Below are positions 182-15,485 of a stretch of 24,000 bases of DNA, piece by piece; positions within the stretch are counted from its first letter, which is position 1, and each line of letters opens with the position of its first letter. The notes beneath the pieces were generated by a model. That model saw only the letters and a program-made list of their open reading frames with translations. It did no database searches and was not told the origin of the DNA. The translations under genes were made by a program, and so were the position numbers. The stretch is taken from the NCBI RefSeq assembly GCF_008000995.1, contig NZ_CP042828.1, positions 2,260,882 to 2,284,881 of the forward strand, written 5' to 3'. Source of the stretch: Ruania zhangjianzhongii (lineage in GTDB: Bacteria > Actinomycetota > Actinomycetes > Actinomycetales > Beutenbergiaceae).

Positions 182-1084
182 GTGAGGAGCATGACCGCCC
201 CCAGCGTCGCGGCCCTCGCCTGGCAGTCCGAGCAGCCCCGGCTGCTCGGTATCGCCTACCGGATGCTGGGCGACTACGGCCACGCGGAAGACGTCGTCTC
301 CGAGGTCGGGCTGGAGGCGGTGCGCGCCGAGCGGGAGGGGGCCGTGCGCTCCTGGCCGGCGTGGCTGACCACCGTCTGTGTGCGCCGCGCCATCGATCGG
401 CTGCGCTCCTTGGCACGAGCCCGGGAGGAGTACCCGGGGCCCTGGCTCCCGGAGCCGGTTGCCACCGACCTGCTCCCGGAGGAGGTGGTCGCCCAGCGGG
501 AACTGCTCTCCATCGGCCTGCTGCACTTGGCCGAACAGCTCAGCCCGGAGTCGCGCGCGGCGCTGGTCCTGCACCGGGCGTTCGCCATGACCGCAGTGGA
601 GATCGCCGAGATCCTGGACAAGACCCCGGCAGCGGTGCGCCAGCTCGTCTCTCGCGCCGAGCGCAGGTTGCAGGTGCACCCGGAGGCACCTGCCCCACGG
701 GCCGCGGACCCGGCGATGCTCGCCGAGCTGGTCACTGCCCTCGAACGCGGCGAGATCGGTACGCTGCTGCGGCTGCTCGAGGACGACGCCATCCTCTGGA
801 CCGACGGCGGAGGCGTGGTGCGCGCCGCCCTCAACCCGATCTACGGTGCGGAGCGGATCGTGCGGTTCTACGCCGGCGTCTACGCCAGCGCCCAGGACCA
901 GAACCCCGAGGCACCGATGCGAGCCACGGTGGTGCCCATCAACGGCGAGCTCGGCCTGGACGTACGCCAGGCGGGCCGGCAGGATCTGGTCACCTTCGAC
1001 GTCGGCCCGACCGATCGCCTGCGCGCGCTGCACCAGATCGCCAACCCGGACAAGCTCACCCGCACCGGGACTGAGCCGGTATGA
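182..1084 (+). CDS. sigJ: ECF sigma factor, ECF41/SigJ-like, with a fused SnoaL-like C-terminal domain (copy 1)
   Basis: 300-aa ORF. The sigma2 region reads LLGIAYRMLGDYGHAEDVVSE. The linker motif is EEYPGPWLPEP. The sigma4 HTH reads LSPESRAALVLHRAFAMTAVEIAEILDKTPAAVRQLVSRAERRL. The C-terminal extension carries DGGGV and NPDKL motifs. The start is ambiguous (GTG 182 or ATG 191). Confidence 0.85.
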   Translation: MRSMTAPSVAALAWQSEQPRLLGIAYRMLGDYGHAEDVVSEVGLEAVRAEREGAVRSWPAWLTTVCVRRAIDRLRSLARAREEYPGPWLPEPVATDLLPEEVVAQRELLSIGLLHLAEQLSPESRAALVLHRAFAMTAVEIAEILDKTPAAVRQLVSRAERRLQVHPEAPAPRAADPAMLAELVTALERGEIGTLLRLLEDDAILWTDGGGVVRAALNPIYGAERIVRFYAGVYASAQDQNPEAPMRATVVPINGELGLDVRQAGRQDLVTFDVGPTDRLRALHQIANPDKLTRTGTEPV

Positions 1085-4710: not shown

Positions 4711-4863
4711 CCCGGGCCCGGTTCCTCGACCGGCACCCGACCACGCGACTGGACGACATCCATTGCTCCGGGCGGGGTGGGTTCAGGTGGTGAGTGCACG
4801 GACCTCGGCCACTCGCGGCAGTCTCATCGCGCGGGCGCCGGACATCGGTGCCAGGGTCGAAGG

Positions 4864-6108
4864 ATGATCCCGCAGGTGTCGCTTCGCAGACTGCCCGGCC
4901 TGCTCACCGAGGGATACGCGTTCATCTCCCGCACCTGCGACAACGTCGGCACGGACGCTTTCCGGGTGCACGCCTTCGGCCGGCCGGTGACCTTCCTGCG
5001 AGGTGCGGACGCCTCCCGGCTGTTCTATGGCGGCCAGGGCCGCTTCACCCGGGCGGGAGCGGTGCCCACCTTTGTGCAGCACCTGCTGCAGGACGAAGGC
5101 TCGGTACAAGGACTCGACAGCGCAGCTCACCGGCATCGGAAAGCGATGTTTCGCGCTCTGCTCACCTCCTCAGATGCCGGCCGGATCGTGGATCTGTTCG
5201 CCGAGGACTTCGCTCGGGCAGCGAGGTACTGGGCCGAGCAGGACCGGATCGCGCTGCACAGCCAGGCGGAGCTGCTGCTCACCCGGACCGCGCTGCGCTG
5301 GGCCGGTGTGCCGCTCGCGGGCACCAGTGTGCGCCACCGCGCCCGAGAGCTGTCGGCGATGGTGGACTGGATCGGCTTGGTCGGCCCGGGGAACTGGGCG
5401 GCCCGACTGCTCCGCCGCCGCACCGAGGCCTGGGCGGCGGGACTGGTGTCCGCGGTGCGTGCGGGTGAGCTCTCCCCGCCCGGCCGCAGTGCCTTGGCGG
5501 TGATCGCCGGCTTCCGGGATGACCACGGTGACCTGCTGACCGAGGAGGTGGCCGCCGTCGAGCTGATCAACGTGCTCCGCCCGATCGTGGCGGTGAGCCG
5601 TTTCGTCACCTTCGCCGCGGTAGCACTGATGACCCATCCGCACTGGCGAGAGACCTTTGCGCAGGGAACGGAGGCGGATCTGCAGCCATTCGTGCACGAG
5701 GTGCGCCGCTACTATCCGTTCTTCCCTGCGGTGCCGGGCCGGACCACCGAACCGTTCACCTGGCAGGGCGCAGAGTTCGCCGCCGGGGAGCTCGTGGTGC
5801 TCGACCTGTACGGGACCAACCATCACCGGAGCCTGTGGGAGCTGCCCGAAGCGTTCGCCCCGGAGCGGTTTCGAGACTGGGACGGCGACCCGCACACGCT
5901 CATCCCGCAGGGCGGCGGGGACTCTGTCACCGACCACCGGTGCCCCGGCGAGCCGATGACGATCGCGCTGATGAAGGAGGCGGTGCGGCTGCTCACCCGC
6001 TCGGTGACGTACACCGTGCCGGTCCAAGACCTGAGCGTGCCGCTGAACCGCGGGCCGGCTCTGCCGCGGGAGGGCGTGCTGCTGGCGGGCGTGCAGCCGG
6101 TCGGCTAA
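4864..6108 (+). CDS. Cytochrome P450, CYP152 fatty-acid peroxygenase family
   Basis: The N-terminus LLTEGYAFISRTC, then SVQGLDSAAHRHRKAMF, the I-helix Arg-Pro (VLRPIVAV) and the Cys-ligand loop HRCPGEPMT are CYP152 (P450 BSbeta/SPalpha/OleT) hallmarks. ATG 4864 is preceded by GAAGGA. The upstream part of ORF 4777 is probably not translated. Confidence 0.85.
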   Translation: MIPQVSLRRLPGLLTEGYAFISRTCDNVGTDAFRVHAFGRPVTFLRGADASRLFYGGQGRFTRAGAVPTFVQHLLQDEGSVQGLDSAAHRHRKAMFRALLTSSDAGRIVDLFAEDFARAARYWAEQDRIALHSQAELLLTRTALRWAGVPLAGTSVRHRARELSAMVDWIGLVGPGNWAARLLRRRTEAWAAGLVSAVRAGELSPPGRSALAVIAGFRDDHGDLLTEEVAAVELINVLRPIVAVSRFVTFAAVALMTHPHWRETFAQGTEADLQPFVHEVRRYYPFFPAVPGRTTEPFTWQGAEFAAGELVVLDLYGTNHHRSLWELPEAFAPERFRDWDGDPHTLIPQGGGDSVTDHRCPGEPMTIALMKEAVRLLTRSVTYTVPVQDLSVPLNRGPALPREGVLLAGVQPVG

Positions 6109-6246
6109 GGTGGCGCCGCTCCGCCCGGGCCGGCCGACGGGGGAGCGTGGTTCTGTGGCCGCGACTGGACAAGAACTGTTGCCCAGCCACGCTCGGGCCA
6201 ACACACTTTGGCAAGTCGGCGGCATTCGTTATCGGCCGGCCTCGGA

Positions 6247-6282
6247 TGTCACAGGTGAGCCGAGCATCTTGTCTTCGGGGTG
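6247..6282 (+). promoter_or_regulatory. Candidate ECF41-type promoter: TGTCACA-n16-TGTC, within the 13-mer TGTCTTCGGGGTG
   Basis: TGTCACA lies at 6247-6253, followed by a 16-nt spacer and TGTC at 6270-6273. As I recall, the published ECF41 target motif is TGTCACA-n16-CGTC. The 13-mer ends 33 nt before ATG 6316. The same 13-mer recurs at 7413-7425. Confidence 0.4.
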
Positions 6283-6315
6283 ACAGGTACGCAGAGCCGG
6301 AGGAGGGTGGGAGGT

Positions 6316-7278
6316 ATGCGTGGGCAGGGCAACGGTGCTGCACCGGGCGCAGGAACGAAGCGCGCCGAGGAGTTCACCGAGCTGCGTCCGCTGCTGTTCG
6401 CGATCGCCTACCGGATCCTGGGCAGCGTGACCGAGGCCGAGGACGTCGTTCAGGACAGCTGGTTGCGCTACGACGCTGCCGAGGCGCGGCCGGAGTCGCC
6501 GAAGGCCTACCTGTCCACGATCGTCACCTGGCTCGCGGTGAACGTGCTGAAGTCAGCCCGGGTGCGGCGCGAGGAGTATGTGGGGGAATGGTTCCCCGAA
6601 CCGTTGCTCGAGGATCCGTACCAGGATCCGGCGCGGAGCGCGGAGCTGGCGGACTCGGTCTCGATGGCCGCGCTGGTGCTGCTGGAACGGCTCAGCCCGC
6701 TGGAACGGGCCACGTTCGTGCTGCGGGACGTGTTCGGCTTCGAGTACATCGATATCGCTGCGGCGGTGGGGCGGTCCGAGTCGGCCTGCCGGCAGCTGCT
6801 GGTGAGGGCCAGGCGGCACGTGCGCCAGGGCCGGCCGCGGTTCGAGGCGGACCGGGAAGCCCGCGACGAGCTGGCCGCCCGGTTCTTCGAGGCGATCGGC
6901 AACGGTGACCTGGACGGCCTGCGCGACTTGTTGGCGGCCGACGTCCAGCTGGTCACCGACACCGGCGGCAAGGCCCCCGCGCCGCCGAGGCCGATCGTCG
7001 GTGCGAAGCAGAACCTCCGGTTGCTCGGCGCCATCATCCCGGATCTGGACCGCATCGGCCTCACCCTGGAGCCGCAGGAGGTGAACGGCGAGCCGGGAGC
7101 GCTGGCTCGCGACGGGGAGGGCAACATCGTGCAGGTGATGACCCTGGACATCGCCGGCGGCCGGATCCAGACGATCCGGATGGTGAGCAACCCGGAGAAG
7201 CTCGCGCACCTCGGACCGGTAGCCGATCAGTGGGCAGTGGCACGGGAGTACCGCCATGGGCGGGACGCCCGGCGCTGA
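6316..7278 (+). CDS. sigJ: ECF sigma factor, ECF41/SigJ-like, with a SnoaL-like C-terminal domain (copy 2)
   Basis: Sigma2 reads LLFAIAYRILGSVTEAEDVVQDSWLRY. The linker is EEYVGEWFPEP. Sigma4 reads LSPLERATFVLRDVFGFEYIDIAAAVGRSESACRQLLVRARRHV. The C-terminal motifs are DTGGK and NPEKL. A strong RBS (GGAGGAGGGTGGGAGG) precedes ATG 6316. Confidence 0.85.
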   Translation: MRGQGNGAAPGAGTKRAEEFTELRPLLFAIAYRILGSVTEAEDVVQDSWLRYDAAEARPESPKAYLSTIVTWLAVNVLKSARVRREEYVGEWFPEPLLEDPYQDPARSAELADSVSMAALVLLERLSPLERATFVLRDVFGFEYIDIAAAVGRSESACRQLLVRARRHVRQGRPRFEADREARDELAARFFEAIGNGDLDGLRDLLAADVQLVTDTGGKAPAPPRPIVGAKQNLRLLGAIIPDLDRIGLTLEPQEVNGEPGALARDGEGNIVQVMTLDIAGGRIQTIRMVSNPEKLAHLGPVADQWAVAREYRHGRDARR

Positions 7279-7378
7279 TCTGGATGGACTGGTGCTGATC
7301 CGCACTGGCGCTGATCTGGACGGACTGGTGCTGATCCGCACTGGCGCTGACCTGGACAGCCACTGGTGCTGATGCTTG
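7271..7378. repeat. 36-bp tandem repeat, about 3 copies, containing six copies of the 12-mer CTGGYGCTGAYC
   Basis: Units 7271-7306 and 7307-7342 are 35/36 identical. A third, degenerate unit spans 7343-7378 and carries a 2-nt insertion. The 12-mer copies start at about 7269, 7289, 7305, 7325, 7341 and 7363. The repeat starts at the sigma-factor stop codon (TGA 7276-7278). Confidence 0.9.
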
Positions 7379-7391
7379 CTAGCACCGGCGA

Positions 7392-7425
7392 TGTCGCGGC
7401 GTGCCGTCGTGCTGTCTTCGGGGTG
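7392..7425 (+). promoter_or_regulatory. Second copy of the promoter-like motif: TGTCGCG-n14-TGTCTTCGGGGTG
   Basis: The 13-mer at 7413-7425 is identical to that at 6270-6282. It ends 32 nt before ATG 7458, compared with 33 nt at the other site. Both upstream elements read gaTGTC(A/G)C(A/G). The spacer is 14 nt rather than 16. Confidence 0.35.
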
Positions 7426-7457
7426 GACCGCATCTCTCACTCAGAACGGAGACCGCC

Positions 7458-7928
7458 ATGACTGCCGAGCCCGCCACCGGTCGCGGAAGGACGCAGCAGC
7501 GTCCGGCGCTGCCCAGGACCGTGCTGCCCAGGACCGTGCTGCGCAGGGCCGCCTTCGGGCTGCTCGCCGCGACCGCGATCAACCTCGCCCTCTACGCCAC
7601 CGGTCGCCTGGTCGGTGCAGCGCTCAGCCTGGACCCAGCGATCGGCCCACCGAACCACCACCTCACCGCCTTCGATGTCGCCTGGAAGACCTTCGTCCCG
7701 CTGAGCCTTGGGGTCGGGGTGCTCCTGCTCGCTCGGTTGCGCTCGCGGGCCTGGGTGAGCGCCGTGATGGTGCTCGGCGCCGCTGTGGCGGTGTCCACCG
7801 GCGCGGTGCCGCCGCTGTACGCCCACGACGGGATCACCGCTGTGCTGCTCGCGGGGATGCACACTGTGCCCGGGGTGGCGCTGGTGTGGATCGGCCTGGC
7901 CGTGCGCCGCGCTAGTCGCCGCCGCTGA
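7458..7928 (+). CDS. Small four-helix integral membrane protein, DUF6069-like
   Basis: 156 aa counted from ATG 7458 (RBS AACGGAGA). A basic N-terminus is followed by 4 hydrophobic segments (FGLLAATAINLALYATG, FVPLSLGVGVLLLA, VSAVMVLGAAVAV, AVLLAGMHTVPGVALVWIGLAV). The family call rests on pattern memory only. Confidence 0.5.
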   Translation: MTAEPATGRGRTQQRPALPRTVLPRTVLRRAAFGLLAATAINLALYATGRLVGAALSLDPAIGPPNHHLTAFDVAWKTFVPLSLGVGVLLLARLRSRAWVSAVMVLGAAVAVSTGAVPPLYAHDGITAVLLAGMHTVPGVALVWIGLAVRRASRRR

Positions 7929-9213
7929 GGGCGGCGAGTCGGCGCAGCAGATAGCGCTGCTCCGGCAGGATGGTGGTCAGCCGCGCCGCCTGCCGGTAGT
8001 GCTCGGCCGCCGCGGCCCGGTCGCCGGCCAGCTCGAGCAGGTGGGCGCGGACAGCGTGCACCCGGTGTTCCTCCACCCCCTCGGGGTGGTCCAGCAGTGG
8101 GTCGGTCATCTGCAGCCCGGTGCGGGCATCGTGAGCCATCGCGACGGCGACCGCACGGTTGAGAGTAGTGGTCGGGCTGGGTGCGACTCGCCCGAGCAGG
8201 TCGTAGAGCACACTGATCTGCAGCCAGTCGGTCTGCGCGTAGCTGGCAGCGTCGGCATGCACAGCGGCGATCGCCGCCTCCAGCTGGAACCGGCCCACGT
8301 GCCCGCGGGGAAGCGTCCGTTCCAGCAGCTCGCGGCCGCGGTCGATCAGCCCGGTGAGCCAACGGCTCCGATCCTGCTCGGCCAGCGGGACCAGATCGCC
8401 GGCCGCATCGGTACGTGCTGGGCTGCGGGCATGGGTGAGCAGCATCAGCGCCAGCGCACCGGACACCTCGTCATGGTCGGGCAGCGCCCGGTGCAGGTGC
8501 TCGGTGAGCGCGATCGCCTCGCCAGCCAGCTGGACGTCCTGCAGCTGGGCACCGGCGGTGGCGGTGTATCCCTCGGTGAAGATCAGGTAGCACGCGTCCA
8601 GGACAGCGTTCACCCGGGCCGGCAGCTCCTCGGGCGGCGGGAGCTCGAACCGGGCGCCGGACTGGCGGAGCGTGCTGCGGGCGCGGGTGAGGCGCTGGGT
8701 CATCGTGCGGGCCGGCACCCCGAACCCGGCAGCGATCTGAGTCACGCCCAGCCCGGCGACTGCGCGCAGGCAGAGGCACACCTGCGAGGATCTGGTCAGC
8801 GACGGGTGCGCACAGAGCAGCAGCAGCAGCCGCAGCCGGTCAGCGTCCGGCCCGGTGGCCACGCCCGCGCCCTGGCCAGGCGCACCGGAGGGCTCCCCGG
8901 TGCGTGCGCCGTCGTCGACGACCTGCTCCTCCCGCCGGGTGCGCGCGGTATCGGCGCGCACCCGGTCGATCAGCCGGCGGGAGGCGACCCGGATGAGCCA
9001 GGCACGCGGATCAGCCGGTGTACCCGTGCGGGGCCACTGCCGCACCGCGGCCTCGGCCGCCTCCTGCACGGCGTCCTCACAGTCGCCGTAGTCGCCGTGC
9101 CGGCGCAGCAGCGCGGCGAGCACCTGCGGCGCCTCGGCCCGCCAGAGCCGGGCCAGCGGGTCACCGGGGGCCGCGGGCTCGCTCCCGGTGGCCGCACGTG
9201 GCATACCCGTCAC
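7912..9213 (-). CDS. ECF sigma factor with a long C-terminal TPR-like/DUF6596 extension (ECF42-like)
   Basis: 433-aa ORF. Sigma2 reads GDYGDCEDAVQEAAEAAVRQWP. Sigma4 reads LCLRAVAGLGVTQIAAGFGVPARTMTQRLTRARSTL. It is followed by an approximately 230-aa helical extension (YLIFTEGY...FQLEAAIAAVHA...). GTG 9213 overlaps the YCII stop (GTGA). ATG 9204 is an alternative start. Confidence 0.8.
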   Translation of the reverse strand: MTGMPRAATGSEPAAPGDPLARLWRAEAPQVLAALLRRHGDYGDCEDAVQEAAEAAVRQWPRTGTPADPRAWLIRVASRRLIDRVRADTARTRREEQVVDDGARTGEPSGAPGQGAGVATGPDADRLRLLLLLCAHPSLTRSSQVCLCLRAVAGLGVTQIAAGFGVPARTMTQRLTRARSTLRQSGARFELPPPEELPARVNAVLDACYLIFTEGYTATAGAQLQDVQLAGEAIALTEHLHRALPDHDEVSGALALMLLTHARSPARTDAAGDLVPLAEQDRSRWLTGLIDRGRELLERTLPRGHVGRFQLEAAIAAVHADAASYAQTDWLQISVLYDLLGRVAPSPTTTLNRAVAVAMAHDARTGLQMTDPLLDHPEGVEEHRVHAVRAHLLELAGDRAAAAEHYRQAARLTTILPEQRYLLRRLAALSGGD

Positions 9214-9605
9214 GCCGGGTCGTCACCCGCTGAGCCCATCACCGGTCGCAGCTCCACGGTCTCGTCCGGGCCGGCGAACCTGGCAGCGATCTGCTCGGCC
9301 CGCTCCGGGCTGGCCACGTCGATGAGGAAGAACCCGGCCAGGTGCTCCTTGGTCTCCGAGTAGGGGCCCGCGGTGGGGACCGGTGCGCCGTCGGCCCACC
9401 GGTACAGCCTCGAGGTGGTCGGATCGCCGAGCGCCTCCCCGCCGAGGAGCTCACCGGCCGCCTGCATCTCGCCGAGGGTCTCCTCGAAATCGGCGTTCAG
9501 CTGCTCCCGGACCTCAGCGGGCAGCTGCTGGTGTGCCGCCAGGTAGTCGGCAGTGGGGTGGCCCCACGGCTGCGGGTTGGAATGGATCAGCAGCACGTAC
9601 TTCAT
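9210..9605 (-). CDS. YCII-related / DGPF domain protein
   Basis: 131 aa. MKYVLLIH...GGEALGDPTTS...GPYSETKEHLAGFFLIDVASPERAEQIAARF is a typical YciI/DGPF pattern. A GAGGAG RBS lies 6 nt upstream of ATG 9605. The gene is translationally coupled to the downstream sigma factor. Confidence 0.8.
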   Translation of the reverse strand: MKYVLLIHSNPQPWGHPTADYLAAHQQLPAEVREQLNADFEETLGEMQAAGELLGGEALGDPTTSRLYRWADGAPVPTAGPYSETKEHLAGFFLIDVASPERAEQIAARFAGPDETVELRPVMGSAGDDPA

Positions 9606-12425: not shown

Positions 12426-13340
12426 GTGGCCGTTCCCGGGATTCTGATGTCGCGCGCAGGTTTCGCCGCGATGCGCCTCGCCCAGCGCCTCTCCGCGCTC
12501 TCGGCGGGCGACCGGATCCCGAAGTTCGAAGACCTGGCCACCGAGCTCGGCTGCGGGAAGGGCACTGTCCAGGCGGGCTTCGACCTGCTCGGCGAGGCGG
12601 GCGGGCTGCGGCTACGCTCCCGCGGACGGCTGGGCACCTTCGTGGACGAGATCGACCACACCGTGCTCTGGCGGCTCGCCGGGCAGCGATCGGTATCGGT
12701 CGCGATGCCGTTGCCCTACTCGCGCCGCTACGAGGGGCTGGCAACGGGTCTGCATGCCAGTTTCGCGGATGCCGGTATCCCGCTGACCCTGATGTTCATG
12801 CGCGGATCGGTGGCCCGGCTGCGGGCGCTGGCCGAGGGCCGCGCCGACTTCGTGGTGATGTCCGCCCTGGCGGCCGGTAGCAGCGATGACCTCGAGATCG
12901 TGCACAACTTCGGACCGGGCAGCTATGTGGCCGCCCACGCCCTCATCCTCGCCGACGGCTGCACCGCCGACACCCCCGGCCTGCGGGTGGGAGTCGACCC
13001 GGCCTCGGAGGACCAGGTGCGTCTGGTGGATCGGGCCTTTGGTCCCCTCCCCGGTGCGCAGCGAGTCGAAGTCTCCTACAACCAGCTCGAATCGGCGTTC
13101 CGCGACGGGCGCATCGACGCCACGGTGTGGAACGTCGATGAGATCCGCGCGCACATCAGTGCGCCGGTGAGTATCGAACCGCTGGCACTCGCACGCGATG
13201 CGGCCAATACGCAGGCGGTGATCGTCCGGGCGGCCACCGAGGTGCCGGTACCGGTCGGTGTCCGGGCTGCGCTCACCGCTGCGACTGTTCTCGACCGGGC
13301 CCACGACGTCGTCGCGGGCCGTGCAACCCCGACCTATTAG
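12426..13340 (+). CDS. yhfZ: YhfZ-family transcriptional regulator (GntR-like winged HTH plus a periplasmic-binding-protein-like YhfZ C-domain)
   Basis: The 304-aa ORF has the N-terminal HTH IPKFEDLATELGCGKGTVQAGFDLLGEAGGLRLRSRGRLGTFV. It is followed by an approximately 230-aa alpha/beta domain (VSVAMPLPYSRRYEGLATGL...RVGVDPASEDQ...). It heads a cluster with the other yhf-type genes. Alternative starts are ATG 12447 and ATG 12471. Confidence 0.75.
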   Translation: MAVPGILMSRAGFAAMRLAQRLSALSAGDRIPKFEDLATELGCGKGTVQAGFDLLGEAGGLRLRSRGRLGTFVDEIDHTVLWRLAGQRSVSVAMPLPYSRRYEGLATGLHASFADAGIPLTLMFMRGSVARLRALAEGRADFVVMSALAAGSSDDLEIVHNFGPGSYVAAHALILADGCTADTPGLRVGVDPASEDQVRLVDRAFGPLPGAQRVEVSYNQLESAFRDGRIDATVWNVDEIRAHISAPVSIEPLALARDAANTQAVIVRAATEVPVPVGVRAALTAATVLDRAHDVVAGRATPTY

Positions 13341-13349
13341 GAGCAGCAG

Positions 13350-13730
13350 ATGGATCCGACGCTGCAGGAGCGACTCGACATCTTCCGCGCGATGCCCGCC
13401 GTACCGGACGAGGCGGTCGACCTGGTCGCGGCCGAGCTCACCCGGCTCGACCCGGCACAGACACTGACCGACGACCAGGCCGGCAGCTTTGTCTCGCACG
13501 CCGTCAACGCGCTGGCGCGACTGTCCGCCGGAGACGTCTCGGTCGAAGCGCCCAGCGACACCGTCTACCAGCAGGTGCGGGATGAGGACCCCCAGGCGGA
13601 AGAGCGGGCGCGCGCCTTCGTCGAGCGCGTGCAGGCCCGGCTCGGCCGAGCACTGCCGGAGGCGGAACTGAAGTTCATCACCATCCACTTCGCTGCGTTG
13701 GCGCAGCACACCAGAAAGGAGCACCCGTGA
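13350..13730 (+). CDS. yhfY: Stand-alone PRD-domain protein (YhfY-like)
   Basis: 126 aa, all-helical. Two His residues sit in PRD-like contexts: FVSH(50)AVNAL and FITIH(113)FAAL. Their 63-residue spacing is typical of the two phosphorylatable histidines of one PRD. An AGGAGC RBS precedes ATG 13350. Confidence 0.7.
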   Translation: MDPTLQERLDIFRAMPAVPDEAVDLVAAELTRLDPAQTLTDDQAGSFVSHAVNALARLSAGDVSVEAPSDTVYQQVRDEDPQAEERARAFVERVQARLGRALPEAELKFITIHFAALAQHTRKEHP

Positions 13731-14086
13731 AGATCATCACCGGCGGTGTCGGAAAGGCCCAGGTGGCCGAGGTCCTGAAACCCCTCCTGCGACCCGAGGA
13801 CGAGGTGAGCGTCGGCAGTGACATGGATGCCGCGATCAAGCTGCAGTCCGGCCAGGCCGACTTCTTCCTCGGCACCTGCCACACCGGTGCTGGTGCAAGC
13901 CTGGGGGTGCTGGTCGGCCTCCTCGGCGGCGACCGATGCCACACCTTTGCCCGGAAGATCCCCGCTGCCGAAGACGTGGACCACGCGCTGGCGAGCGGCG
14001 CGGTCGCGCTCGGCTTCTCCGTGGACCAGATCACCGAGGCGGTACCGGTGATCTACGCCGCGCTGCAGCGCCGGAACGAGGGCTGA
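13727..14086 (+). CDS. yhfU: DUF2620 (YhfU-like) small glycine-rich protein
   Basis: 119 aa: MKIITGGVGKAQVAEVL...SDMDAAIKLQSGQADFFLGTCHTGAGASLGVLVGLLG. The RBS GAAAGGAG lies 5 nt upstream. GTG 13727 overlaps the upstream stop (GTGA). Confidence 0.7.
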   Translation: MKIITGGVGKAQVAEVLKPLLRPEDEVSVGSDMDAAIKLQSGQADFFLGTCHTGAGASLGVLVGLLGGDRCHTFARKIPAAEDVDHALASGAVALGFSVDQITEAVPVIYAALQRRNEG

Positions 14087-14087
14087 G

Positions 14088-15485
14088 ATGGGTCACCTCC
14101 CGATGGACGTCACCGCTGGCGGCGTCAGCTTCCTGCTCTGGCAGTCGATCGTCGTCATGGCGGTGACGGCGATCGGTGCGATGATGGCGCACTCCGCTCT
14201 TGCGGTGTTCAACGACGGCGCCCGGCCGTTCATGCTTGACTTCGTCCGCGGTAAGACGAACCGGGCGGCGACGGCCACGATCGTGTTCGGGCTCTCCGCC
14301 GGGTTCATCTTCGGGCTCGGGGCTCCGATGGCCCTGGCCACCGGGGTGCTCAATCCCTGGCTGATCTTCCTGCCTGCCGAGATCCTCGGTCTGCTCGCCC
14401 CCTGGCGCTGGTTGGCAGGTGTGGCCGGTGCGGCTTGGGGCGCGGTGTGCGCGTTCGGTCTGGGTACGGTCAACTCCGTCGCTCAGCAGCTTCCGGTCGA
14501 CTTCATCACCGCCCTGCAGGTACTGGGCGACCCGATTCTGTGGCTGTTCTCGATGTTCCCGGTGCTCGCGGTGGCCCGCCAGTTCGGGCGACTTCGCGGG
14601 TTCATCACCCTGCTGGTCGAGGCGGGCATGATCGTCCTCGCCACCCAGCTCTGGCCGGACATGTTCGCCGGGTCCCTGGCGATGGCGCTCGGTGTGGTGC
14701 TGCTGCTGGTGTTCGCGCTGACCAAGGACCGCACCGCCAAGAGCGAGGAGAAGGTAGCACTCGCGGCGATGAACGCGGACCAGCGCACCGCGGCCGCCGA
14801 GGCGGAGGCCACCAGCGCAGCGGCGGTGAACCAGCTGTTCGGGCCGAACGCGCTCCGGCTCCGCAAGAACATCGTCTGGCTCGCGCTCCTCGGTGGCGCG
14901 GTGGCCGCCCTGTCCGCCACCCACATCTTCGGTGGGGGAGAGGCCACCAGCTTCCTGCTCGCCGACGGCAAGGTGACCGAAGCGGCCCAGGTCGACTTCT
15001 ACCGGGCGTTCGGGTTCATTCCGCTGATTGCCACCACCGCCCTCGCCTCCGGGGCCTACGCGATGGCCGGGTTCACCTTCGTCTACCCGGTCGGCTACCT
15101 GATCGGCGCGGGCTTCGACTCGCCGGCGCTCGCACTGGCCGTGGCGTTCGTCGCCGGTGCCGTGGTGATGGCGCTCGAAGTGCTGGCCCTGTCCTGGGTG
15201 GGGAACTGGCTACAGCGCTGGCCGAGCGTGCGCGACTCGGCCGACCATATCCGCAGTGCGATCACCGAGTCGCTGCAGGTGGCGATCCTGGTCGGTTCGG
15301 TCATGGCGGCCAGCCAGATGGGTGGCGGATTCGGAATCTTCCTCGTCGGTGGCCTCTACCTGGTCAACGAGGCGCTCGGCCGGCCCGTGGTCCGGATGGC
15401 AGCCGGCCCGGCTGCGGTGATCGTCAGCGGCGTGCTGCTCAACCTGCTCTATCTGGTCGGGCTGTTCACCCCGATCGCTGCTTAG
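14088..15485 (+). CDS. yhfT: YhfT-like polytopic inner-membrane protein (putative permease)
   Basis: 465 aa with about 12 hydrophobic segments. They fall into two halves separated by a charged, Ala-rich loop (KDRTAKSEEKVALAAMNADQRTAAAEAEATSAAAVNQ). The gene starts 1 nt after the yhfU-like stop. The assignment rests on position and size within a yhf-type cluster. Confidence 0.7.
   Translation: MGHLPMDVTAGGVSFLLWQSIVVMAVTAIGAMMAHSALAVFNDGARPFMLDFVRGKTNRAATATIVFGLSAGFIFGLGAPMALATGVLNPWLIFLPAEILGLLAPWRWLAGVAGAAWGAVCAFGLGTVNSVAQQLPVDFITALQVLGDPILWLFSMFPVLAVARQFGRLRGFITLLVEAGMIVLATQLWPDMFAGSLAMALGVVLLLVFALTKDRTAKSEEKVALAAMNADQRTAAAEAEATSAAAVNQLFGPNALRLRKNIVWLALLGGAVAALSATHIFGGGEATSFLLADGKVTEAAQVDFYRAFGFIPLIATTALASGAYAMAGFTFVYPVGYLIGAGFDSPALALAVAFVAGAVVMALEVLALSWVGNWLQRWPSVRDSADHIRSAITESLQVAILVGSVMAASQMGGGFGIFLVGGLYLVNEALGRPVVRMAAGPAAVIVSGVLLNLLYLVGLFTPIAA

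Follow-up and report, generated by a model that had tools for sequence, protein, structure and literature searches.

Putative ECF41-type promoters before a SigJ-like sigma factor gene and its DUF6069-subfamily neighbor in Ruania zhangjianzhongii

A stretch of 24,000 nucleotides from Ruania zhangjianzhongii (contig NZ_CP042828.1, positions 2,260,882 to 2,284,881, forward strand), here called the window, contains a gene for a sigma factor of the ECF41/SigJ type, followed on the same strand by a gene for a membrane protein of a DUF6069 subfamily. Each of the two genes is preceded by a promoter-like site, termed site 1 and site 2, and both sites contain the same 13-mer, TGTCTTCGGGGTG. A preliminary description, made from the letters of the window, had read the two sites as a mini-regulon of two promoters through which the sigma factor regulates its own gene and drives the neighboring one. 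The genes and elements of the locus are as follows, in window positions.

6245-6253, plus strand: −35 element of site 1, GATGTCACA, composed of the prefix GA (6245-6246) and TGTCACA (6247-6253); 7/7 match to the ECF41 −35 consensus
6269-6273, plus strand: −10 element of site 1, T-TGTC, 16 nucleotides after the −35 element; TTGTC invariant in 4 orthologs
6277-6287, plus strand: G-rich box of site 1, GGGGTGACAGG, predicted transcription start region; GGTGA invariant
6316-7278, plus strand: gene for the ECF41/SigJ-type sigma factor, 320 amino acids (Pfam, NCBIfam, and structure match)
7390-7398, plus strand: degenerate −35 element of site 2, GATGTCGCG, composed of GA and TGTCGCG (7392-7398); orthologs read GATGTCAC(A/G)
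7412-7416, plus strand: −10 element of site 2, C-TGTC, 14 nucleotides after the −35 remnant; 16 nucleotides in all orthologs
7420-7428, plus strand: G-rich box of site 2, GGGGTGGAC, where transcription of the DUF6069 gene is predicted to start; invariant in eight Ruania-type loci
7458-7928, plus strand: gene for the DUF6069-subfamily membrane protein, 156 amino acids (Pfam PF19545, four predicted transmembrane helices)

The sigma factor and its membrane-protein partner

The product of the gene at 6316-7278 is a member of the SigJ/ECF41 family. It scores 352.8 bits against NCBIfam TIGR02957 (cut-off, 323.25) and 314.8 bits against the SigJ model NF007214 (cut-off, 271), which upholds the assignment made in the preliminary description. 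The Pfam domains Sigma70_r2 and Sigma70_r4_2 occupy residues 21-82 and 118-168, and a C-terminal extension of ∼100 amino acids follows, in which a SnoaL_2 match at residues 188-267 reaches 21.2 bits and stays below its cut-off of 27. The structure of SigJ from Mycobacterium tuberculosis (PDB 5XE7) aligns to residues 16-297 with an E value of 2.6e-46, and the alignment continues through the extension to residue 297. The linker between the sigma2 and sigma4 domains reads WFPEP, a single conservative change from the conserved WLPEP motif described for the ECF41 linker (PMC3426412).

No anti-sigma domain is matched next to the sigma gene, the neighbors of which encode a CYP152-like P450 and the DUF6069 protein. 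A gene for a carboxymuconolactone decarboxylase (CMD), oxidoreductase, or epimerase, collectively COE, is likewise not adjacent, and the partner position is taken by DUF6069. More than 30% of the published ECF41 genes also have no COE neighbor (PMC3426412); such a neighbor is typical of ECF41 and not obligatory.

The protein encoded at 7458-7928 matches Pfam PF19545 with 40.6 bits (cut-off, 27.2). Hydropathy analysis predicts four transmembrane helices, and the structure model shows four long helices arranged as a membrane bundle (predicted local distance difference test [pLDDT] score of 82, predicted template modeling [pTM] score of 0.72). The model has no structural match in the PDB at an E value of ≤0.001, the best match having an E value of 0.3, and a literature search on DUF6069 yielded nothing pertinent. 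Among the invariant residues of the subfamily are His67, Asp73, Trp76, Lys77, His123, Asp124, and His135. The same gene lies downstream of the sigma gene in the orthologous loci, and on these sequence grounds, the DUF6069-subfamily protein appears to be the partner that is conserved downstream of this clade of sigma factors and to be their target. A role as an anti-sigma factor was considered and is unlikely, judging from the lack of an anti-sigma domain and from an N terminus that is short, variable, and poorly modeled.

The sigma-linked DUF6069 proteins form a divergent and rare subfamily. They share the Pfam family and a similar size with the canonical DUF6069 proteins of the same genomes, from which they differ in score (36 to 49 bits, compared to ∼88 bits for the canonical copies). 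The canonical genes, represented in this genome at C1:841767-842144, have neither an adjoining ECF41 sigma gene nor an ECF41 motif. Only 12 close relatives of the sigma-linked subfamily occur among 5.8 billion proteins. In a sample of 401 genomes from the order, the subfamily is present in 3 Ruania genomes, and a fourth match, in genome G211, stands in an unrelated context. A maximum-likelihood tree requires one label change for the DUF6069-linked sigma factors, at a branch support of only 64/54.

The two promoter-like sites and their conservation

The positions of the 13-mer copies, the spacers, and the start-codon distances given in the preliminary description are borne out by the sequence. 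TGTCTTCGGGGTG occurs exactly twice in the window (n = 2), at 6270-6282 and 7413-7425. The first copy ends 33 nucleotides before the ATG at 6316 and the second ends 32 nucleotides before the ATG at 7458; the spacers between the −35 and −10 elements measure 16 nucleotides at site 1 and 14 nucleotides at site 2. The accompanying argument, which holds the recurrence of an exact 13-mer to be improbable by chance, carries little weight by itself. The window has a GC content of 69%, and 104 13-mers recur on its plus strand more than 100 nucleotides apart, compared to ∼32 in first-order Markov shuffles of the window; in a search allowing 2 mismatches, at least 2 matches arise in 19 of 100 shuffles. 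The identity of the 13-mer alone is therefore not beyond chance and is weak evidence, as about 100 13-mers recur in this GC-rich window. What does exceed chance are the equal start-codon offsets, the GATGTC element, the uniqueness in the genome, and above all the conservation in orthologous loci. On both strands of the 5.1-Mb genome, TGTCTTCGGGGTG has only these two exact copies, both in the window, and 12 more matches with one mismatch are dispersed and mostly lie within coding sequence.

Judged by its sequence, the 13-mer is not a special element of 13 nucleotides: it comprises the −10 element TGTC, three further bases, and the G-rich region of the predicted start. Both copies lie near the same promoter consensus, which would explain their identity. 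In other Ruania genomes, sites 1 and 2 differ from each other at one to three positions, which argues against recent copying between the sites.

The reference for both sites is the study by Wecke et al. 2012 (PMC3426412), in which ECF41-dependent promoters were mapped in Bacillus licheniformis (Ecf41Bli) and Rhodobacter sphaeroides (Ecf41Rsp). Both mapped promoters have the −35 element TGTCACA, with TGTT and CGTC as −10 elements, and their transcripts start at G; TGTT is the active −10 element of PydfG of B. licheniformis, which was validated experimentally. The consensus from 285 sequences reads TGTCACA, a spacer of 16 ± 1 nucleotides, and CGTC. The motif stands upstream of COE and of ECF41 genes, with no other conserved targets; when the ECF gene comes first and its partner follows, the motif is present at both in about 20% of cases (PMC3426412).

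Site 1 agrees with this consensus as the preliminary description had stated, with an exact −35 element, a 16-nucleotide spacer, and three of the four bases of CGTC in its −10 element TGTC, the first T of which is kept in the clade and has an active precedent in the TGTT of PydfG. By sequence, it reads as a canonical ECF41 promoter of the form GATGTCACA-n16-TGTC. It is conserved in six Ruania-type loci, always with a 16-nucleotide spacer. In four Ruania genomes, GATGTCAC, TTGTC, and GGTGA stand as invariant islands upstream of the sigma gene within surrounding DNA that is ∼58% identical, and GATGTCAC is also kept in two loci from metagenome contigs, L065 and L066.

The −35 core of site 1, TGTCAC (6247-6252), forms an inverted repeat with GTGACA (6280-6285) just 3′ of the −10 element. 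The repeat is kept in 5 of the 6 Ruania-type loci and is not present at site 2. In genome G009, the opposite strand of site 1 reads TGTCACC-n17-CGTC. This arrangement may be the remnant of a bidirectional ECF41 promoter or an additional element of control. In related genomes (L008, L009, and L010), ECF41 sigma genes stand back-to-back with small membrane or other genes (DoxX-like in L008), with mirror-image TGTCACA-n16-CGTC promoters on both strands.

Site 2 retains the −10 element TGTC found in most of its orthologs (CGTC in Georgenia sp. SUBG003), and its −35 element TGTCGCG matches the ECF41 sequence TGTCACA at 5 of 7 bases. Five genomes keep GATGTC-C, TGTC, and GGGGTGGAC upstream of the DUF6069 gene, and metagenome contigs supply three more Ruania-type loci, L065, L066, and L069. 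The proteins of the Ruania-type orthologous loci are 76 to 87% identical; at both sites, the −35 element, the −10 element, and the G-rich box are conserved islands within diverged intergenic DNA. Outside Ruania, GATGTCACA-n16-(T/C)GTC precedes the DUF6069 gene in Georgenia subflava, in Phytoactinopolyspora alkaliphila, and in two metagenome-assembled genomes, one of the Micrococcaceae and one of the Beutenbergiaceae, each with a sigma gene. In Georgenia sp. SUBG003, the motif before the DUF6069 gene is present and no sigma gene is detected in the fetched flank. In these other genera, the GGGGTGGAC box takes the looser form GGG..GAC.

In total, 12 other distinct loci, which represent at least five genera, have the DUF6069 promoter with a 16-nucleotide spacer. 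All 12 read GATGTCAC(A/G)-n16-(T/C)GTC, with TGTCAC(A/G) as the −35 element and a spacer of exactly 16 nucleotides, so that of the 13 orthologous promoters, only site 2 of R. zhangjianzhongii deviates. An ECF41-type promoter before the sigma gene itself is absent in the four non-Ruania loci in which the sigma gene is found. This indicates that the DUF6069 promoter is the older, conserved part of the system, and autoregulation through site 1 appears, from the sequences compared, to be a feature of Ruania.

The nearest relative, L065, is ∼92% identical in the sigma coding DNA and differs at site 2. At the −35 element, L065 reads GATGTCACACGG where R. zhangjianzhongii reads GATGTCGCGG, and the region from the −35 to the −10 element reads GATGTCACACGGCGCGCTGTCGTGCTGTC in L065, compared to GATGTCGCGGCGTGCCGTCGTGCTGTC. 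The difference amounts to a 2-base-pair deletion in an ACAC run and three substitutions. No alternative −35 element is present in the sequence at the correct distance from the −10 element of site 2. The conservation marks site 2 as an ancestral and real promoter. It is probably weakened or inactive in this genome, because its spacer lies outside the published range of 16 ± 1 nucleotides (PMC3426412) and because every one of the collected promoters has A at −35 position 5. The preliminary description had treated site 2 as a slightly odd copy with a spacer caveat; the 14 nucleotides were correct, and the comparison with the 12 orthologs adds the deletion and the −35 substitutions.

The DNA around site 2 is rich in repeats. 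A tandem repeat with a 36-base-pair unit in 2.8 copies (7271-7373, plus strand; Tandem Repeats Finder score of 160, 91% matches) extends from the last codons and the stop of the sigma gene to just 5′ of site 2. The array occurs in this genome only; in orthologs, the unit is present once or another short duplication takes its place, which in L065 is a 16-base-pair one at the same position. In the 5′ part of the DUF6069 gene, a 15-base-pair tandem duplication (7508-7552) contains GCTGCCCAGGACCGT twice and a degenerate third copy; it encodes LPRTV-LPRTV and is not found in orthologs. The two tandem repeats suggest a stretch unusually prone to slippage.

Interpretation of the sites and competing explanations

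The explanation that accounts best for these observations, with a probability of roughly 0.78, is that both sites are ECF41-class promoters read by the sigma factor encoded at 6316-7278, site 1 being canonical and site 2 probably weak or dead in this genome. The data show the sequence matches, the family membership of the sigma factor, the conservation, and the deviation of site 2 from its orthologs; sigma dependence, the start sites, the loss of activity at site 2, and read-through are inferred. Region 4 of the sigma factor would bind the −35 element (GA)TGTCACA and region 2 the −10 element (T)TGTC, 16 nucleotides downstream. Transcription would start in the G-rich box, ∼5 to 8 nucleotides past the −10 element, which would leave a leader of roughly 35 nucleotides. 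Site 1 would thereby confer positive autoregulation on the sigma gene, and site 2 would be the dedicated promoter of the DUF6069 gene, which has here lost 2 base pairs of spacing and two −35 bases. From an ancestral state with two promoters, expression of the DUF6069 gene would have shifted mainly to read-through from site 1. Such read-through is probably the main route to the DUF6069 transcript, since no terminator is detected between the genes; in 5900-8200, neither a sigma-70-type promoter nor an intrinsic terminator was found.

The preliminary description was thus right in kind, and its proposal of ECF41 promoters, an autoregulated sigma gene, and the neighbor as a target is partly supported by the sequence comparisons. 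As for the two-promoter mini-regulon, both promoters leave footprints in relatives, and the correction concerns the probable decay of site 2, the lone outlier in this genome.

Several points weigh against this explanation. In its −10 element and leader, site 2 matches L065 at 47 of 50 bases (94%), with changes in the −35 part, and it may retain some function. A 9-base-pair hairpin at ∼7363-7388 could hinder read-through, although it lacks a U-tract, is not conserved, and has no significant fold; the fold of the repeat region, with a z-score of −1.42, is also not significant. The presumed intolerance of ECF promoters to a 2-nucleotide change of the spacer derives from general knowledge about such promoters and from the published range of 16 ± 1 nucleotides (PMC3426412). 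Finally, the genome encodes about nine ECF41-like paralogs, two of which have TGTCACA-n16-TGTC promoters, and another paralog could read the sites.

Genome-wide scans place site 1 among the promoters of this class. TGTCACA-n16-TGTC occurs 3 times in the genome, where the base composition and the 97 TGTCACA sites would predict ∼0.3, and all 3 adjoin ECF41 paralogs. One of them is site 1; the other two precede oxidoreductase-sigma gene pairs with ECF41 paralogs at C1:1146-1151 kb. There, a unit of an oxidoreductase gene (Pyr_redox_2) and an ECF41 sigma gene is tandemly duplicated (G000 C1:1146330-1150942), with the same TGTCACAGATCCGGGTGCACCGGTGTC promoter before both copies. With the relaxed motif TGTCACN-n16-YGTC, 3 of 10 matches lie within 2.5 kb of a paralog, compared to 2 of 152 for TGTCACN and YGTC at 16 other spacer lengths, the counts of which show the three-base periodicity of coding sequence; the remaining relaxed matches occupy coding or antisense positions. 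Neither the strict nor the relaxed scan reveals further regulon members in the genome away from ECF41 loci, and a genome scan with the −10 element plus GGGGTG adds nothing further. These scans fit the published view that an ECF41 factor has a single, local target.

An alignment of 29 distinct promoter-like sites from all loci, all chosen with a 16-nucleotide spacer and many of them orthologs and hence not independent, gives the extended consensus GA-TGTCACA-n15-T-(C/T)GTC followed by GGG. The A at position 5 of the −35 element is common to all 29, and GGG lies 4 to 6 nucleotides after the −10 element in 20 to 22 of the 29 ECF41-type promoters. The G-rich box also follows the promoters of epimerase, CMD, and oxidoreductase genes, and its presence at unrelated target genes indicates a feature of the promoter class rather than of a single gene.

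It is unlikely that both promoters are fully functional in R. zhangjianzhongii, with a sigma factor that tolerates TGTCGCG and a 14-nucleotide spacer. Such tolerance would fit the intact DUF6069 gene, the retained GATGTC half of the site 2 −35 element, and the near identity with L065 that, besides the −10 element, includes the G-rich box, the leader, and the ribosome-binding region. It is opposed by the uniform 16-nucleotide spacing and TGTCAC(A/G) of the 12 other orthologous promoters, by the A at −35 position 5 in the 29 collected promoters (taken with a 16-nucleotide spacer), by the published spacer range (PMC3426412), and by the lack of an alternative −35 element at the right distance.

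That the sites are of the ECF41 type and are read mainly by another paralog, for example, those at C1:1146-1150 kb, is distinctly improbable. The number of ECF41-like paralogs in the genome and the two further TGTCACA-n16-TGTC promoters beside paralogs that are 43 to 46% identical would allow it. The sigma-DUF6069 pair and its promoter, however, travel together across genera, which need not have the other paralogs in common, and linkage in cis of an ECF41 factor with a single target is the rule in published work (PMC3426412).

Even less probable is that the conserved block is the operator of another DNA-binding regulator or an RNA element of the 5′ leader, instead of part of a promoter. GGGGTG(G)AC is conserved more than a start region strictly needs, and the inverted repeat of the site 1 −35 core with GTGACA (6280-6285), kept in 5 of 6 Ruania-type loci, could be read in the same sense; this repeat is, however, missing at site 2. 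The leaders fold no better than shuffled sequences (z-scores of −0.33 and +1.38), the alignment fold contains one compensatory pair with an unfavorable covariation term, and the G-rich box recurs after the −10 elements of the ECF41 promoters of epimerase, CMD, and oxidoreductase genes. A chance match has a negligible probability, common as recurring 13-mers are in the window, given the equal start-codon offset and the footprints in orthologs, and a dispersed REP-like (repetitive extragenic palindromic) repeat, which the preliminary description had named as the alternative, is excluded by the copy number of two in 5.1 Mb and by the ortholog conservation.

Neighboring genes and comparison with known ECF41 systems

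The following genes of the window lie around the sigma-DUF6069 pair.

182-1084, plus strand: more distant second SigJ-like gene (domain/family search)
4777-6108, plus strand: CYP152-like P450 gene (profile score)
7912-9213 and 9210-9605, minus strand: genes for an ECF sigma factor with DUF6596 and for a YCII protein, convergent pair (domain matches)

The SigJ-like gene at 182-1084 scores under the cut-offs of the SigJ models. Directly before it, a carboxymuconolactone-decarboxylase/AhpD-like gene extends to about window position 155, which is the classical layout of a COE gene followed by an ECF41 gene; no ECF41 motif is present within 900 nucleotides upstream of this CMD gene. The P450 at 4777-6108, of the CYP152 family (fatty-acid peroxygenase-like), scores 443 bits compared to a cut-off of 600. 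It precedes the sigma gene in several Ruania genomes, and in L066 a TetR gene takes its place, which indicates that the P450 is not part of the module. The pair of genes for the DUF6596-type ECF sigma factor and YCII (7912-9605, minus strand) has 17 nucleotides in common with the 3′ end of the DUF6069 gene, and its convergent arrangement with the DUF6069 gene is shared by L066 and L069. Farther downstream, 12426-15485 contains a cluster of a YhfZ-like regulator, a PRD-domain protein, and a YhfT-like membrane protein.

A more far-reaching reading, possible though doubtful, holds that a distinct ECF41 clade has exchanged its COE enzyme for the DUF6069 membrane protein as a mobile module, with the promoter dialect GATGTCACA-n16-TGTC plus GGGGTG(G)AC, a decay of the promoters toward one operon, and the G-rich box or the inverted −35 core possibly as an extra element. 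Within this reading, the enzyme given up would be the usual cytoplasmic one, the two-gene module would be horizontally mobile, and the G-rich box with the inverted −35 element 3′ of the −10 element could serve ECF41 promoters in a recognition or control role not described before.

The significance of the locus lies in the target, which is unusual; the regulatory layout is ordinary. The DUF6069 subfamily gains its first regulatory context: in this clade, an ECF41 sigma factor has it as a conserved target and probably as the only one, where published work knows only COE enzymes as ECF41 targets. The natural pair of promoters with 16- and 14-nucleotide spacers also offers a usable test of how ECF41 factors depend on the spacer and on the A of the −35 element. 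The remainder confirms a known promoter class, useful for annotation and unsurprising to the specialist.

The closest solved structure is that of SigJ from M. tuberculosis (PDB 5XE7; Goutam et al. 2017, PMC5766207), the alignment with which includes the SnoaL_2 domain. In SigJ, this domain modulates promoter recognition (PMC5766207). SigJ has a different genomic partner. The main text of the ECF reclassification paper contains nothing specific on the context of the subgroup.

Like the ECF41 factors described by Wecke et al., the sigma factor combines sigma2, a WLPEP-like linker, and sigma4 with a fused C-terminal extension of ∼100 amino acids, and it has no anti-sigma neighbor. The −35 element is the same, as is the 16-nucleotide spacer at site 1, and a promoter stands before the sigma gene and before the adjacent gene, with no further targets in the genome. 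Contrary to the published systems, the partner is a four-helix membrane protein of the DUF6069 subfamily and not a COE enzyme, the −10 element of this clade reads TGTC rather than CGTC, and the spacer of site 2 in this genome falls outside 16 ± 1 nucleotides. The layout is already known from the work of Wecke et al. in 2012; new are the non-COE target, the −10 element TGTC in place of CGTC, and the probable natural decay of a promoter.

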